In this document: piece after piece, positions 4,813 to 47,452 of the stretch
How the letters are laid out: every line of letters starts with the position of its first letter
Numbering within the stretch: position 1 is the first letter of the stretch
Assembly (NCBI GenBank): GCA_036263155.1
Contig: DATAHN010000043.1
Coordinates: 1-55,014 of the forward strand
Source: Gammaproteobacteria bacterium
GTDB taxonomy: Bacteria; Pseudomonadota; Gammaproteobacteria; Natronospirales; REEB76
Reading direction: 5' to 3'
Length of the DNA stretch: 55,014 bases
Notes under the pieces: model-generated
What the model saw: only the letters and a program-made list of their open reading frames with translations
Databases searched by the model: none
What the model was told of the DNA's origin: nothing
Translations under genes and position numbers: made by a program

Positions 4813-4855
4813 CGGAAGGGCTCGGTCCGGCCTTGGCCGGCGTCCGATGGGGGTA

Positions 4856-4864
4856 TGGTAGAAT
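4856..4864 (+). promoter_or_regulatory. Candidate extended -10 promoter (TG-g-TAGAAT)
   Basis: tggtagaat about 65 bp upstream of the ATG at 4930. Confidence 0.5.
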
Positions 4865-4929
4865 GGCTTTCCCCGGTTCCCGGGGTGGGGATTTCCCCGT
4901 CAGAACAACAAGTTGTAGGGCTGGAAGCG

Positions 4930-5967
4930 ATGGCACCCCGACCGCTCGAACGCGAACTCATCAAGCAATTCTCGCCCCTGAGTGGCCTCAAGCCGGAGAA
5001 CCAAGCGGACCTCGCCAGCAAGAGCCAGGTGCAGGACACCGAGGCCGGGCGTTACGTCTTCCGCCAGGGCGATGCCGACAAGCGCACCGTGTACCTAGTC
5101 AAAGGTGAGGTCGAGCTGCGTGCGGGCGACAAGGTGGTGCGCGTCATCACCGGCGGCAGCGAGGAAGCCCGCCATCCCCTCGCCCCCCAGATCCCGCGCC
5201 ACCTCTCGGCGCGCGCCAAGACCAACGTCGAATGGTTCGGCGTGGACAGTGACCTCTTGGACATCATGCTCACCTGGGACCAGACCGGCGCCTTCGAGGT
5301 CGGCGAGTTGCAGGCCCAGGAAGAAGCTCCCGCCGACGACTGGATGACCACCATCCTCCAGACCAAGGCCTTCCACCGCATCCCGCCCGCCAACATCCAG
5401 GCGGTGTTGATGCGCATGGAGAACATCGCGCGCAAGGCCGGCGACGTCATCATCAAGCAGGGTGACGAGGGCGACTACTTCTACATCGTCACCTCCGGTA
5501 AGTGCGTGGTGACTCGCGAGACCCCCACCAACAAGGCCGGCATCAAGCTCGCCGAGCTGGGGACGGGCGACGGCTTTGGCGAAGAGGCGCTGATCTCCGA
5601 CGCCAAGCGCAACGCCACTATCACCATGCTCACCGACGGCTCGCTGGTGCGCCTCGCCAAGGACGATTTCAAGAAGCTCCTGAACGAGCCCAGCCAGAAG
5701 TGGATCCCCATCGAGGAAGCCCAGAACATCGTCGCCGCCGGCGGCCAGTGGCTGGACGTGCGTCTGCCCAGCGAGTTCGAGAACAAGCACCAGGAAGGCG
5801 CCATCAACATCCCGCTCTATTTCATCCGCCTGAAGCTCGACACGCTCGATCCCAAGAAGAAGTACGTGGTGTACTGCGACACCGGCCGCCGCAGCTCAGC
5901 GGGCGCTTACATTCTCAGCGAGCGTGGCTTCGACGTGTATGTGCTGAAGGGCGGTGCTCCGTCCTGA
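4930..5967 (+). CDS. Tandem cyclic-nucleotide-binding domains plus C-terminal rhodanese domain
   Basis: CNB1 VFRQGDADKRTVYLVKGEVEL; CNB2 IIKQGDEGDYFYIVTSGKCVV with phosphate-binding cassette FGEEALISDAKRNATI; rhodanese LDVRLPSEF, GAINIP, YCDTGRRS. Start taken at ATG 4930. Confidence 0.88.
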   Translation: MAPRPLERELIKQFSPLSGLKPENQADLASKSQVQDTEAGRYVFRQGDADKRTVYLVKGEVELRAGDKVVRVITGGSEEARHPLAPQIPRHLSARAKTNVEWFGVDSDLLDIMLTWDQTGAFEVGELQAQEEAPADDWMTTILQTKAFHRIPPANIQAVLMRMENIARKAGDVIIKQGDEGDYFYIVTSGKCVVTRETPTNKAGIKLAELGTGDGFGEEALISDAKRNATITMLTDGSLVRLAKDDFKKLLNEPSQKWIPIEEAQNIVAAGGQWLDVRLPSEFENKHQEGAINIPLYFIRLKLDTLDPKKKYVVYCDTGRRSSAGAYILSERGFDVYVLKGGAPS

Positions 5968-6022: not shown

Positions 6023-7375
6023 TCAGGCCAGGGACTGGTGCTTCCCGCCATGGGCGCGGTTGAAGCGCCCCAATTCCTCGATGGCGGCACGCATGCCTTC
6101 CCGTTCCGCCAGCGTCAGGGCCGGGTTCCAGATGTCGAAGATCATCACCACCCGGGTCTTGCCGCTCCTGTTCCAGGCCTCATGCTCGAAGGTGTCGTCG
6201 AAGGCGATGCACTGCCCTTCCGTCCAGTGGCGGGTCTCGGTGCCTACGCGGATGCCGCATTCTGTGGTGGAAGGCACGATCAACGGCAGGTGCACCACCA
6301 GGCGCACGTTGATGACGCCGGTATGGGGCGGAATGTGGGCGCCGGGGGTGAGCACCGAATAGAGCGCCTCCGGCGAATGGTCCGCCACCCGGTTCAGGGG
6401 CGCCGCATCCAGCGCCGCGATGGTGTGCGGGCAGCGTGCGTGGTTGTCCGCGAAGGCCATCCCGTCCCGGTAGAAGAAGAATGCGTTCCAGTTGGGTGAG
6501 TGGTTGAGCTCGCGCCAGTAGGCGGCGCCCGGGTGCTCCCGCGGCATCTCCACGAACGGGCGGAACCCCTCCTCCCGCGCCAGCATCGCCAGGAGCTCCT
6601 CGCGGATTTCGCCGGTGTGGCTTTCCAGCTCCGCCATCCAGGGGAACTCGGAGCGCTCATACCAGGCGCGGGCCGGCAGCCCGGGGAAGCTCATGAAGGT
6701 GGGTCGCTGCAGCTCCGGCAGCGGGATGGGCGGGCGCAGCCCCAGGTAGGATTCGAGGCAGTACCAGACACGGCCGAGGGTCGCGCGTCCATGCTCCCGT
6801 TCCACCGGCGCCAGGGCGGCGCGGAACACCTCCATGCGCGCGTCGCGCAACGCGACCATGGCCTTCTCCGCCAGGACCCGGATGCCGGCGGGGATCGCCG
6901 CCACGTCCAGGAACAGGCCGCTCGCCTCCGCCGCCTCGAAGCCGCGCATGTACCGGGCCAGCGCCTCGTCCCGGCGGCCGAGCTCTTCCAGCAGCGCGCC
7001 ATGGTTGAACAGCGCAGCCACCAGGTCCGGCTTGAGCTCTGCCGCCCGCTCGAAGGCCTTGAGTGCGTCCTCACGGTTGCCGGCAGCGCGGTAGGCGATA
7101 CCGAGGTTCTTGAGCAGGTTCGCATTGGCGGGATTGAGCTCGACCGCCCGCTCCAGGCGCTGCACGCCGCCGCGCAGGTCGCCTGCCTGCAGTACGCTCA
7201 TTGCGATGAAGCTCAGTGCCTCGGGGTTGGCAGGCTCGAGGCTCAGGATGTCCTCGTACAGGCCGCGGGCCGCCGCCAGTTCGCCGCGCTGGGCGTGCTG
7301 GCTGGCGCGCTCCGCGAGCAGGCGCACACGCTCTTCCGGACCAGACTGCCCGGCCTGTGTGCCGCCGCTCGCCAT
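6023..7375 (-). CDS. TPR repeats plus aspartyl/asparaginyl beta-hydroxylase (AspH-like) 2OG-Fe(II) dioxygenase
   Basis: N-terminal TPR helices (NPEAL, NPANANLL); C-terminal HIPPHTG, RLVVHLPL, FDDTFEHEAWN, RVVMIFDIW. Confidence 0.88.
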   Translation of the reverse strand: MASGGTQAGQSGPEERVRLLAERASQHAQRGELAAARGLYEDILSLEPANPEALSFIAMSVLQAGDLRGGVQRLERAVELNPANANLLKNLGIAYRAAGNREDALKAFERAAELKPDLVAALFNHGALLEELGRRDEALARYMRGFEAAEASGLFLDVAAIPAGIRVLAEKAMVALRDARMEVFRAALAPVEREHGRATLGRVWYCLESYLGLRPPIPLPELQRPTFMSFPGLPARAWYERSEFPWMAELESHTGEIREELLAMLAREEGFRPFVEMPREHPGAAYWRELNHSPNWNAFFFYRDGMAFADNHARCPHTIAALDAAPLNRVADHSPEALYSVLTPGAHIPPHTGVINVRLVVHLPLIVPSTTECGIRVGTETRHWTEGQCIAFDDTFEHEAWNRSGKTRVVMIFDIWNPALTLAEREGMRAAIEELGRFNRAHGGKHQSLA

Positions 7376-46398: not shown

Positions 46399-46568
46399 GG
46401 CGCCTCACGACATGTTCGACATGACATTAAGGAACGACGCGGCGCAACTGTCAATTCGGTTCGACCTTTTCAGCGCGAGGGGGTTTTAATAGCCACTTCG
46501 CATGCAGCACGGCCACCTACGAGCAGCCGCGATGCATCGCGTACCCCGAACCGACCGAAGGAGTGACC

Positions 46569-47021
46569 ATGAAACACAAGATCGTTTTGATATCCGCCCT
46601 GCCCGCCCTGCTGCTGGCCAGCGCCGGCTTCGCTGCCGGCGCGCCCGATGCCGGCATGAACCCCGGCAGTTCTGGCATGGATGTCTCCAAGGAGATATCC
46701 ACCGCCCTCACCCACGCCCAGATGTCCGCCAGCAGCGGCGACATCAAGATGGTGCATGAGCACATGCAACACGTGGTGAATTGCCTGGTGGGTCCGCAGG
46801 GCCCTGAATACGACGCCAACGCCGAGGACCCCTGCAAGGGCATGGGCAAGGGCGCCATGAACGACGTGGACAGCAAGAGCGCCCAGCACAAGAAGCTGGA
46901 CAAAGCGCTCACCGAAGCCAAGGACTCGCTCAAGAAGGACAGCGTGAAGGGTGCCCAGGGCGAAGCCAAGGACGTCGTGAAGTATCTGCAGGATGCCCAG
47001 GAAGCCAAACCCAATTCGTAA
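46569..47021 (+). CDS. Hypothetical secreted helical protein, His/Met-rich with two Cys
   Basis: RBS gaagga; signal peptide; VHEHMQHVVNCLVGPQG...DPCKGMG. Confidence 0.82.
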   Translation: MKHKIVLISALPALLLASAGFAAGAPDAGMNPGSSGMDVSKEISTALTHAQMSASSGDIKMVHEHMQHVVNCLVGPQGPEYDANAEDPCKGMGKGAMNDVDSKSAQHKKLDKALTEAKDSLKKDSVKGAQGEAKDVVKYLQDAQEAKPNS

Positions 47022-47041: not shown

Positions 47042-47069
47042 AAAAGCCCGGCTCGCGCCGGGCTTTTTT
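47042..47069 (+). terminator. Intrinsic terminator (potentially bidirectional)
   Basis: aaaagcccggc-tcgc-gccgggctttt-tt. Confidence 0.85.
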
Positions 47070-47199
47070 GTCTGAACCATGACCCGACGTCGAGATACTG
47101 AACACCCCCGTATCCATTGGCTAGCCCCTCCCCATCCAGCTGATAACCGAGACGGGGGAGGTTCATGAATCTTTTGTGACAGCCAGCTGGAATTTTCAA

Positions 47200-47345
47200 T
47201 CGGGACGAGAGGGCCGGATGCGAAGCATCCGGTGGGCCTACAGGGATGTAGGCCCTGGGCTTTCGGCCGCAGCAGGATGCGAAGGCCGAAAGTGAACCTC
47301 AGAGGAGGTTCAAATCCTCTCCTCGCCGGAGAGATTTGAGTTCCG
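47200..47345. repeat. tRNA-Pro-derived palindromic element (split, inverted and degenerate T-arm copies with hairpins)
   Basis: 47200-47212 = 47379-47391; 47293-47300 = 47395-47402; 47304-47321 is the exact reverse complement of 47386-47403; hairpins at 47214-47232, 47234-47255, 47260-47292, 47304-47344. Confidence 0.85.
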
Positions 47346-47351
47346 CTTACT

Positions 47352-47364
47352 TAAGTATTTGATT
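47352..47364 (-). promoter_or_regulatory. IHF binding site consensus
   Basis: Minus strand AATCAA-ATAC-TTA matches WATCAANNNNTTR at all defined positions. Confidence 0.65.
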
Positions 47365-47375
47365 CAAGGTTGAAT

Positions 47376-47452
47376 TGGTCGGGACGAGAGGATTTGAACC
47401 TCCGACCCCCTGCACCCCATGCAGGTGCGCTACCAGACTGCGCTACGCCCCG
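47376..47452 (-). tRNA. tRNA-Pro(GGG)
   Basis: 77 nt: CGGGGCGTAGCGCAGTCTGGTAGCGCA-CCTGC-ATGGGGT-GCAGG-GGGTC-GGAGG-TTCAAAT-CCTCT-CGTCCCGACCA, CCA encoded. Confidence 0.97.

Follow-up and report, generated by a model that had tools for sequence, protein, structure and literature searches.

A probable tRNA-linked repeat unit built around a dispersed three-hairpin cassette lies behind a proline tRNA gene of an uncultured gammaproteobacterium

Introduction

The tRNA-linked repeats (TLRs) of Escherichia coli, reportedly described by Egan and Landy in 1978 and by Rudd in 1999, have to our knowledge had no accepted origin or function since 1978, and the only role that we know to have been proposed, CsrA binding, concerns just the members linked to rRNA. 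The RNAs of these repeats have a closing helix resembling the acceptor/T-stem end of a tRNA, which is thought to direct processing of the tRNA type. Here we analyse a 55,014-nucleotide (nt) stretch of a genome from an uncultured gammaproteobacterial family (GenBank assembly GCA_036263155.1, contig DATAHN010000043.1; the whole stretch is referred to as the window), in which positions 47200-47375 lie directly behind a gene for tRNA-Pro(GGG). We propose that this segment, the Pro unit, is probably a single gene-less, strongly folded TLR of the RtT type, that it arose by insertion of a dispersed hairpin cassette with duplication of the flanking tRNA sequence, and that it may also be part of a putative RNA.

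[quoted passage not shown] No function is known for them, save that RrA, RrB and RrF, the TLRs behind rrnA, rrnB and rrnD, bind CsrA through GGA loops; binding of CsrA and of Hfq was observed in vitro, and these rRNA-linked RNAs are processed (Stenum et al. 2021, PMC8144298). The 19 tRNA-linked units were classed by InvenireSRNA as unlikely CsrA binders, with a probability below 0.01 (PMC8144298). The consensus for CsrA obtained by SELEX is RUACARGGAUGU, with GGA in a hairpin loop, and the repeat of the CsrB RNA is CAGGA(U/A/C)G (PMC7652899).

Results

The tRNA-Pro(GGG) gene is the only tRNA gene in the window (Table 1). On the plus strand tcgggacgagagg, at 47200-47212, is identical to a stretch inside this gene, and tgaacctc at 47293-47300 is identical to a second; the two pieces of the T-arm are separated by att in the tRNA (T-loop positions 58-60) and by 80 nt in the displaced copy. 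The chance expectation for an exact 13-mer within 700 nt is ~1e-5. The first-pass annotation, which was made by a model from the letters alone, had described this displaced T-arm, split by 80 nt that form three hairpins, and the description was borne out at the coordinates it gave. Each hairpin was also said to carry GGATG. The motif does start at 47216, 47244 and 47275, and GGATGCGAAG is found at the first and last of these, but the GGATG at 47216 is in a stem and not in a loop.

The spacer between the cassette and the tRNA gene contains a further, antisense copy of the tRNA end. Positions 47304-47321 are the exact reverse complement of 47386-47403, and 47322-47333 are complementary, in degenerate form, to the tRNA's 3' end. 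In the predicted fold one arm of a small hairpin (tgaacctc/gaggttca) and the 5' strand of the closing helix both come from this copy; the closing helix, in the sense of the tRNA, has ~12 bp and pairs 47322-47333 with 47200-47212, instead of the copied 4-bp T-stem that had been expected to close the junction. Folding of 47196-47345 gave -83.6 kcal/mol (z -6.8) for the plus strand and -78.6 kcal/mol (z -7.9) for the minus strand, and in neither case did any of 200 shuffles fold as well.

This arrangement can be compared directly with RtT (rttR, RF00391), which lies behind tyrT-tyrV in E. coli. RtT resembles the Pro unit in lying immediately after a tRNA gene, in terminating with a tRNA 3'-end copy whose start is in the T-loop, and in occurring as one to several tandem units, the number of which varies between strains or species. 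The parts are also the same: a trailer, an antisense T-arm copy, the sense 5' half of the T-stem, hairpins and the 3'-end copy, with a closing helix made by the antisense copy and the 3'-end copy. When the K-12 tyrT units were read by eye, an antisense T-arm copy (GGGGAAGGATGAGAAGCTTCGAC) was followed by AAGGTTCGA, hairpins and AATCCTTCCCCCACCACCA, and both the boundary in the T-loop and the order of parts were those of the Pro unit; in the Rfam consensus structure of RtT the antisense copy is paired with the 3'-end copy. Given this shared anatomy, T-loop boundary and pairing, the Pro unit is, as judged from its sequence, a TLR member by architecture and not by sequence, with a different and inverted core. 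The cassette has no sequence relationship to the RtT hairpins and runs in the opposite sense to the tRNA; most members of its family are free-standing and intergenic, and its host is not a member of the Enterobacterales. The RtT model matched only the E. coli control and, weakly, a unit behind tRNA-Ser(GCT) elsewhere in the assembly (28.9 bits, E 0.016, model positions 1-130), a score below the gathering score of 45 bits. The first-pass annotation had cautioned that the element might already be a described repeat: this was correct for the anatomy of the unit, which is that of the E. coli TLRs. The tRNA-end-duplicating unit as a whole is not new in kind; for the cassette family no match was found in Rfam and no prior description in the literature searched.

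At the tyrT-tyrV locus of E. coli SK1144 (NZ_AP018784.2, 2698163-2698365) the two tRNA-Tyr genes are 33 nt apart, and a fatty acid desaturase family gene is annotated 17 nt behind the second; no RtT is annotated and there is no room for one, indicating that the presence of TLRs is polymorphic within E. coli as well.

Table 1. Positions in the window of the tRNA-Pro(GGG) gene, the parts of the unit behind it and the adjoining features
Feature	Position	Strand	Evidence
tRNA-Pro(GGG), intact	47376-47452	-	ARAGORN; Rfam tRNA 60.1 bits
Trailer part of spacer, starts ATTCAAC	47334-47375	-	same start in the empty allele of G004
Antisense copy of T-arm and part of acceptor strand	47301-47333	-	sequence; minus-strand fold; counterpart in E. 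coli RtT units
Sense copy of T-stem 5' strand and T-loop 54-57 (GAGGTTCA)	47293-47300	-	identical to 47395-47402
Three-hairpin cassette, antisense to the tRNA	47213-47292	+	R1 model match 47209-47292, 100.6 bits
Cassette helix P2	47214-47232	+	ccggatgc-gaa-gcatccgg
Cassette helix P3, loop ACAGGGAUGU	47234-47255	+	gggcctaca-ggga-tgtaggccc
Cassette helix P4, inner loop GCAGGAUGC	47260-47292	+	ctttcggcc...ggccgaaag
Copy of T-stem 3' strand, acceptor 3' strand and discriminator base (CCTCTCGTCCCGA), without CCA; 3' end of unit	47200-47212	-	identical to 47379-47391
Flank with homology to the empty allele's native trailer	47140-47199		G004 AGCTGGATTCAAGCACCTACACCCC versus AGCTGG...GATTCATGAACCTCCCCC in this genome (G000)
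G+C hairpin with T-runs on both sides	47046-47072		plus-strand terminator listed at 47050-47064

The 80-nt block belongs to a repeat family, as had been supposed. By blastn it is present in 23 of 41 relatives, and for most of the matches the nearest tRNA is more than 1.5 kb away. Twenty-four aligned copies share three helices in which 92.7% of the cells were paired and 20 of the 28 pairs had changed on both sides; this level of pairing was reached by 0 of 500 shuffles, and slid controls were only 30-44% paired. The anticipated compensatory stem changes and fixed GGA(U)G loops are thus present. A covariance model, R1, found 33 copies in this genome, all intergenic and many between convergent genes, and, when 300 Gammaproteobacteria were sampled evenly, had matches in 23 that belong to many families; several of these have at least 15 matches, G130 and G145 among them, and G306 has 11. 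Matches in this class-wide sample, such as those in G130, G145, G306 and G168, score 65-82 bits and have the same loops and covarying stems. The R1 consensus is nnGGGc-P2-CGGGC..aCA(g)GGAUGu..GCCC-UGGnC-P4 with GCAGGAUGC, in which the loops rather than the stems are conserved. A further closing stem, P1, was only modestly enriched in the flanks of free copies (mean 4.5 bp against 3.6 bp in controls) and was therefore left out of the model. No family of Rfam 15 matched the cassette at the gathering score or at E <= 1, and a literature search on CsrA-binding repeats or miniature inverted-repeat transposable elements and on T-loop-targeted miniature elements found no description of it. The idea that the element is specific for tRNA T-loops is not upheld, as most copies are in ordinary intergenic DNA.

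In several respects the family resembles REP/BIME and REPIN sequences, which are likewise short, G+C-rich, palindromic and intergenic, show compensatory changes and often lie between convergent genes. It could be argued, as the first-pass annotation did on the basis of a likeness to REP ends, that the cassette is a REP/REPIN-like or IS200/IS605-derived miniature element moved as folded single-stranded DNA by a Y1 enzyme (RAYT or TnpA) acting in trans. The high copy number, the presence/absence polymorphism described below and one inverted pair of copies on contig C60 would accord with this. The letters that suggested the likeness, however, covary away: the pair 32-44 is UA in 14 sequences, GC in 7 and CG in 3, and the other REP-like position is AU in 19, CG in 2 and GC in 2, so that the conserved letters are those of the loop CA(G)GGAUG and not GTAG/CTAC. 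The Y1_Tnp domain (PF01797), and with it the RAYT gene whose co-occurrence had been anticipated, had no match in the assembly, which is 93.7% complete, whereas 6 of 14 control genomes were positive in the same search. In addition, three hairpins with conserved loops are not a REP layout, and Y1 elements insert without a target duplication of 13-38 nt and without an inverse copy of the target. A Y1-mobilized origin is consequently very unlikely and identity with REP/RAYT elements was rejected; the evidence does not support transposition as single-stranded DNA. The pair on contig C60 consists of R1 copies at 4836-4920 (plus) and 4970-5049 (minus), inverted and 50 nt apart, and is the sole REPIN-like doublet among the 33.

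Eight tRNA loci of the assembly (2.46 Mb, 153 contigs, 67% G+C) carry units of this kind. The region downstream of each tRNA predicted by ARAGORN was searched for a copy of that tRNA's own 3' end. Such a copy occurs 137-290 nt downstream of six tRNAs (Met, Arg-CCG, Pro-GGG, Leu-CAG, Pro-CGG and Ser-GCT), and a degenerate one is found behind Lys-CTT; the Arg, Leu and Ser loci carry two to three units in tandem. The order of parts in the sense of the tRNA is common to all units: the trailer is followed by the T-arm region copied in antisense, a sense T-stem 5' strand with TTCA or TTCG(A) at its end, hairpins, and the 3' strands of T-stem and acceptor, often with CCA. The tRNA-end copy varies in length: it has 13 nt in the Pro unit, 16 nt with CCA in the orthologues of that unit in relatives, and 19 nt in the unit behind tRNA-Ser of this genome. 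The expectation that copies would be found beside other tRNA genes, each flanked by that tRNA's own split T-arm, was confirmed for at least four tRNAs. In T-loop copies the R1 cassette is always antisense to the tRNA (Pro in many species, Met, Lys-CTT and Arg-CCG), while cassettes at the D-loop position, in 5' pseudo-copies ahead of tRNA-Gln(CTG) and tRNA-Lys(TTT), are sense.

The latter, at C31:6080-6164 and C110:43207-43294, are mirror images of the downstream units: a copy of the tRNA 5' end (22 nt for Gln-CTG, ~19 nt for Lys-TTT) starts exactly at +1 and is followed, from the GG of the D-loop, by a cassette, 19-87 nt ahead of the real tRNA. At the tRNA-Met locus (C4:10503-10860) a 110-bp segment, from GGTCGG in the variable loop/T-stem of the tRNA to GGTCGG in the trailer, is present twice in tandem, and the cassette is in the T-loop of the second copy; the locus shows what appears from its sequence to be a microhomology-bounded tandem duplication at a TLR locus. 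Contig C31 also carries, outside the window, a pseudo-tRNA-Gln (~1002-1105, minus, with ~200 nt of flanks) in which a large sense-oriented block of GGA hairpins is enclosed by the tRNA's initial 21 nt (TGGGGGATCGTCTGCGGTAGG) and final ~19 nt (AATCCTAGTCCTCCAGCTA), two stretches able to form an acceptor stem. The arrangement is akin to a natural 'tRNA scaffold' holding CsrA-type hairpins, and just upstream of it the D/anticodon region is copied in antisense.

Repeated tRNA ends could alternatively be the attL/attR pair of a T-loop-specific tyrosine integrase whose island was deleted or shrank to the hairpin block. The genome does contain three tyrosine recombinase genes, but all are on contigs other than that of the locus, and there is no integrase or mobile gene near this housekeeping locus. 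The supposed island would be 163 nt long and would be built of the tRNA's own sequence and a repeat that is mostly found away from tRNAs. The same geometry recurs at eight tRNAs and in the E. coli TLRs, none of which has island genes, and the cassette is located exactly at the supposed crossover point, which is not a product of integrase chemistry. As, moreover, none of 30 orthologous loci carries a full integrative element between the repeats, an integration scar is highly improbable, and this candidate was rejected for want of mobile genes nearby.

The 30 orthologous tRNA-Pro(GGG) loci, from 30 genomes of the family, display 0, 1, 2 or 3 tandem units. G004 has an identical tRNA-Pro and the same downstream gene and no unit, and the locus is also empty in G024 and most of genus g2; two genomes with units hold further, nested cassettes. 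The native trailer of G004 matches the flank behind the displaced 3'-end copy in the window, and ATTCAAC directly follows the tRNA in nearly all genomes of genus g1, whether a unit is present or not. In orthologous units the 3'-end copies end in CCA. Free copies behave similarly: compared with the closest relative, G011, the cassette is missing at 8 of 8 orthologous sites whose flanks are 88-97% identical. Empty and filled alleles, which had been proposed as a test, therefore exist both at tRNA-Pro(GGG) and at sites away from tRNAs, and the cassette turns over very fast.

At one free site, C118:3452-3534 compared with G011:C12:30200-30800, the DNA found only in this genome is made up of the cassette, followed by 7 nt and then by 38 nt that duplicate the target imperfectly (TAAGTnATACCCGCTTGTAC...GCGG) and contain a small fold-back, CTTGTAC-CCC-GTACAAG; the geometry of the insert is that of a long target-site duplication. 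As a general rule, long target duplication was rejected, since it is largely confined to the tRNA-linked copies.

At every junction examined the cassette follows GG: AGG/ATT in the antisense T-loop, TCGG/TA in the D-loop, GCGG/ATAC on C118 and CGCCAGGG/AT inside a GGA hairpin of the relative G020. This looks like a strand-specific entry rule, although the pattern could equally result if one orientation were selected for. The reverse transcriptase domain RVT_1 had no match in the assembly, and a retro-element origin was rejected for this reason.

A point missed by the first-pass annotation is that the loops fit the CsrA consensus. On the plus strand the loop of P3 is cUACAGGGAUGUag, generally (c/a)UACAGGGAUGUA, and that of P4 is GCAGGAUGC; the letters of both are near-invariant across 74 copies, and the two GGA sites of a cassette are ~30 nt apart. 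The loops, which lie on one strand, look like optimal, though putative, CsrA sites (CAGGGAUG and CAGGAUG). The genome has a csrA gene (contig C108, 6470-6634) whose product is 87% identical to E. coli CsrA. In the free copies G.U pairs outnumber A.C mismatches 49 to 24 on the GGA strand; this excess and the co-orientation of free copies with neighbouring genes are weak hints, neither of them decisive, that the GGA strand functions as RNA. Across the genome, hairpin-embedded CA(N)GGANG occurs at 184 sites, against 88 in a reversed-genome control.

RrA, RrB and RrF likewise tie stable-RNA operons to the Csr system through TLR hairpin loops with CsrA-type GGA. In these TLRs, however, it is the transcribed strand that bears the GGA loops, and their binding has been measured, whereas the loops of the Pro unit are known from sequence and are opposite the tRNA. 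With CsrB, CsrC and RsmX/Y/Z the cassette shares repeated hairpin loops of the type CAGGAUG or ACAGGGAUGU, ~30 nt apart, a spacing fit for a CsrA dimer. It differs from these sponge RNAs in having only two sites, in that no promoter or terminator of its own was found, in lacking a match to the Rfam Csr/Rsm models, and in being present in ~30 dispersed, quickly gained and lost copies instead of one to a few conserved genes. A search for a canonical Csr sponge RNA through genome-wide clusters of GGA hairpins was too noisy (491 clusters) and was abandoned.

On contig C108 the csrA gene (plus strand) is convergent with tRNA-Ser(GCT) (7081-7174, minus) within 6470-7174, and the gap between them is occupied by RtT-like units, with GGA loops (CCCCAGGGAUGGGG) on the tRNA-sense strand. 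In E. coli, csrA adjoins the serV-argVYZQ operon, which carries TLRs.

The unit is probably within the tRNA-Pro transcript, and its RNA is predicted to fold as a five-way junction with a closing helix that would mimic the acceptor/T-stem end of a tRNA. As such a transcript would carry the complement of the CsrA loops, binding of CsrA would require plus-strand transcription. The unit might instead be a selected small-RNA gene, its RNA being cut from the tRNA-Pro precursor by tRNA-processing enzymes with the help of the tRNA-end-like helix. The anti-GGA loops (CAUCCCUG and GCAUCCUGC) would then pair with the GGA loops of the ~30 sense copies or of Csr-type sponge RNAs, tying free CsrA to tRNA transcription and thus to growth rate, and the antisense orientation would be selected and not mechanistic. 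The position of the unit between the tRNA and the next terminator, the strong minus-strand fold with its 12-bp closing helix and the uniformly antisense orientation of T-loop cassettes at four different tRNAs are in harmony with such a gene, as is the observation that rRNA-linked TLR RNAs of E. coli are processed and bind CsrA (PMC8144298). Close relatives with an identical tRNA (G004, G024 and most of genus g2), however, have no unit, indicating that it is dispensable; copy number and spacer sequence vary freely among relatives, and the tRNA-linked copies have no G.U bias for the tRNA-sense strand. We thus consider a selected small-RNA gene rather unlikely.

Discussion

The data presented here are most readily accommodated by a TLR of the RtT type into which a dispersed cassette has entered, an interpretation that is probable in our view. 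In the sense of the tRNA, the unit would consist of the trailer, the antisense copy of the T-arm and 3' end, the T-stem 5' half, the cassette at T-loop 57/61 and a copy of the last 13 nt of the tRNA. The cassette, which is one of ~30 copies per genome, is not peculiar to tRNAs and is present in many Gammaproteobacteria, would enter hairpin loops just after GG (..AGG/AUU in the antisense T-loop, ..CGG/UA in the D-loop). Entry would copy the flanking target, so that the tRNA gene would remain intact, with a displaced tRNA end that contains the cassette left behind it; unequal exchange would then generate arrays of 1-3 units.

Several observations weigh against this interpretation. The Pro unit had no match to RF00391 at E <= 1; its tRNA-end copy is 13 nt without CCA, not the 18-19 of the E. 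coli units, and three T-loop letters are lost. Flanking direct repeats of at least 11 nt were found in 15 of 69 copies (3% in controls), mostly at tRNAs, and for one tRNA-Met unit it is enough to assume that 110 bp were duplicated in tandem at a 6-nt microhomology and that an insertion came later. No enzyme of spread was identified, neither a RAYT, a reverse transcriptase nor a nearby integrase having been found. With respect to the putative RNA, the CsrA-type loops at this locus are on the strand opposite the tRNA, for which no sigma-70-like promoter was found at the locus and upstream of which there is a strong terminator; the G.U excess is modest and is gone in the tRNA-linked copies (7 to 5), and free copies are sense relative to neighbouring genes in a ratio of only ~2:1.

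It is tempting to go further and to suggest that GGA-hairpin cassettes are self-propagating carriers of CsrA-type sites that home to GG/A steps in hairpin loops, a proposal that is speculative and to which we give little credence at present. The target loops would be the cassettes' own GGA loops, as in the nested copies, the antisense face of the T-loop and the sense face of the D-loop; each entry would copy the flanking target, partly as a fold-back. Neither a transposase nor a RAYT nor a reverse transcriptase would take part, the candidate mechanisms being template switching at stalled forks and some structure-specific enzyme. If this were true, TLRs, in E. coli as well as in other organisms, would have the origin that has long been missing for them. 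Units downstream of tRNAs might, moreover, yield RNAs coupled to growth rate, of which sense versions would sponge CsrA and antisense versions, such as that described here, would mask GGA loops.

The cassette-bearing TLR that we favour extends the TLR architecture to a distant, uncultured gammaproteobacterial family. It shows the hairpin core of TLRs to be exchangeable, one type of core being also a free intergenic repeat that is rapidly gained and lost and has textbook CsrA loops, and the filled and empty alleles in related species provide concrete material on how TLRs arise. The question is raised of whether modules with CsrA sites spread like mobile elements, which would be a route by which a global post-transcriptional regulon could be rewired. 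For annotation, the locus serves as a warning that 'att-like' repeats of tRNA ends without an island are usually units of the TLR type.

The surroundings of the unit are those of a housekeeping locus. The tRNA gene is the last of a minus-strand run, pheS-pheT-ihfA-merR-tRNA, identified by a Pfam scan of the neighbouring open reading frames, and the neighbours comprise pheS, pheT, an IHF/HU-like gene, a MerR-family gene, an acyl-CoA dehydrogenase and an ABC ATPase. The G+C hairpin beyond the unit terminates the convergent plus-strand open reading frame at 46563-47021 and, as the minus strand reads GCCCGGCGCGAGCCGGGC TTTTCG, is likely also the end of the tRNA-Pro transcript. Between the unit and this hairpin the flank contains ggaggttcatgaatc (47158-47172), a degenerate T-arm copy on the plus strand, as well as aatcttttgtgacag, which recurs to the left of the cassettes at C66:3009-3090 and C109:2050-2131; both stretches look like remnants of an older unit or cassette that adjoined the present one.

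Finally, post-terminator intergenic stretches that are dense in GGA-loop hairpins (CGUACAGGGACGUAC, GGCAGGAUGCC, ACCAGGGA and others) occur at C58:9990-10260 in this genome and at G011:C4:110000-110760 in its closest relative. The GGA-hairpin content differs between the two, and the stretch is a possible sponge locus of the Csr type.

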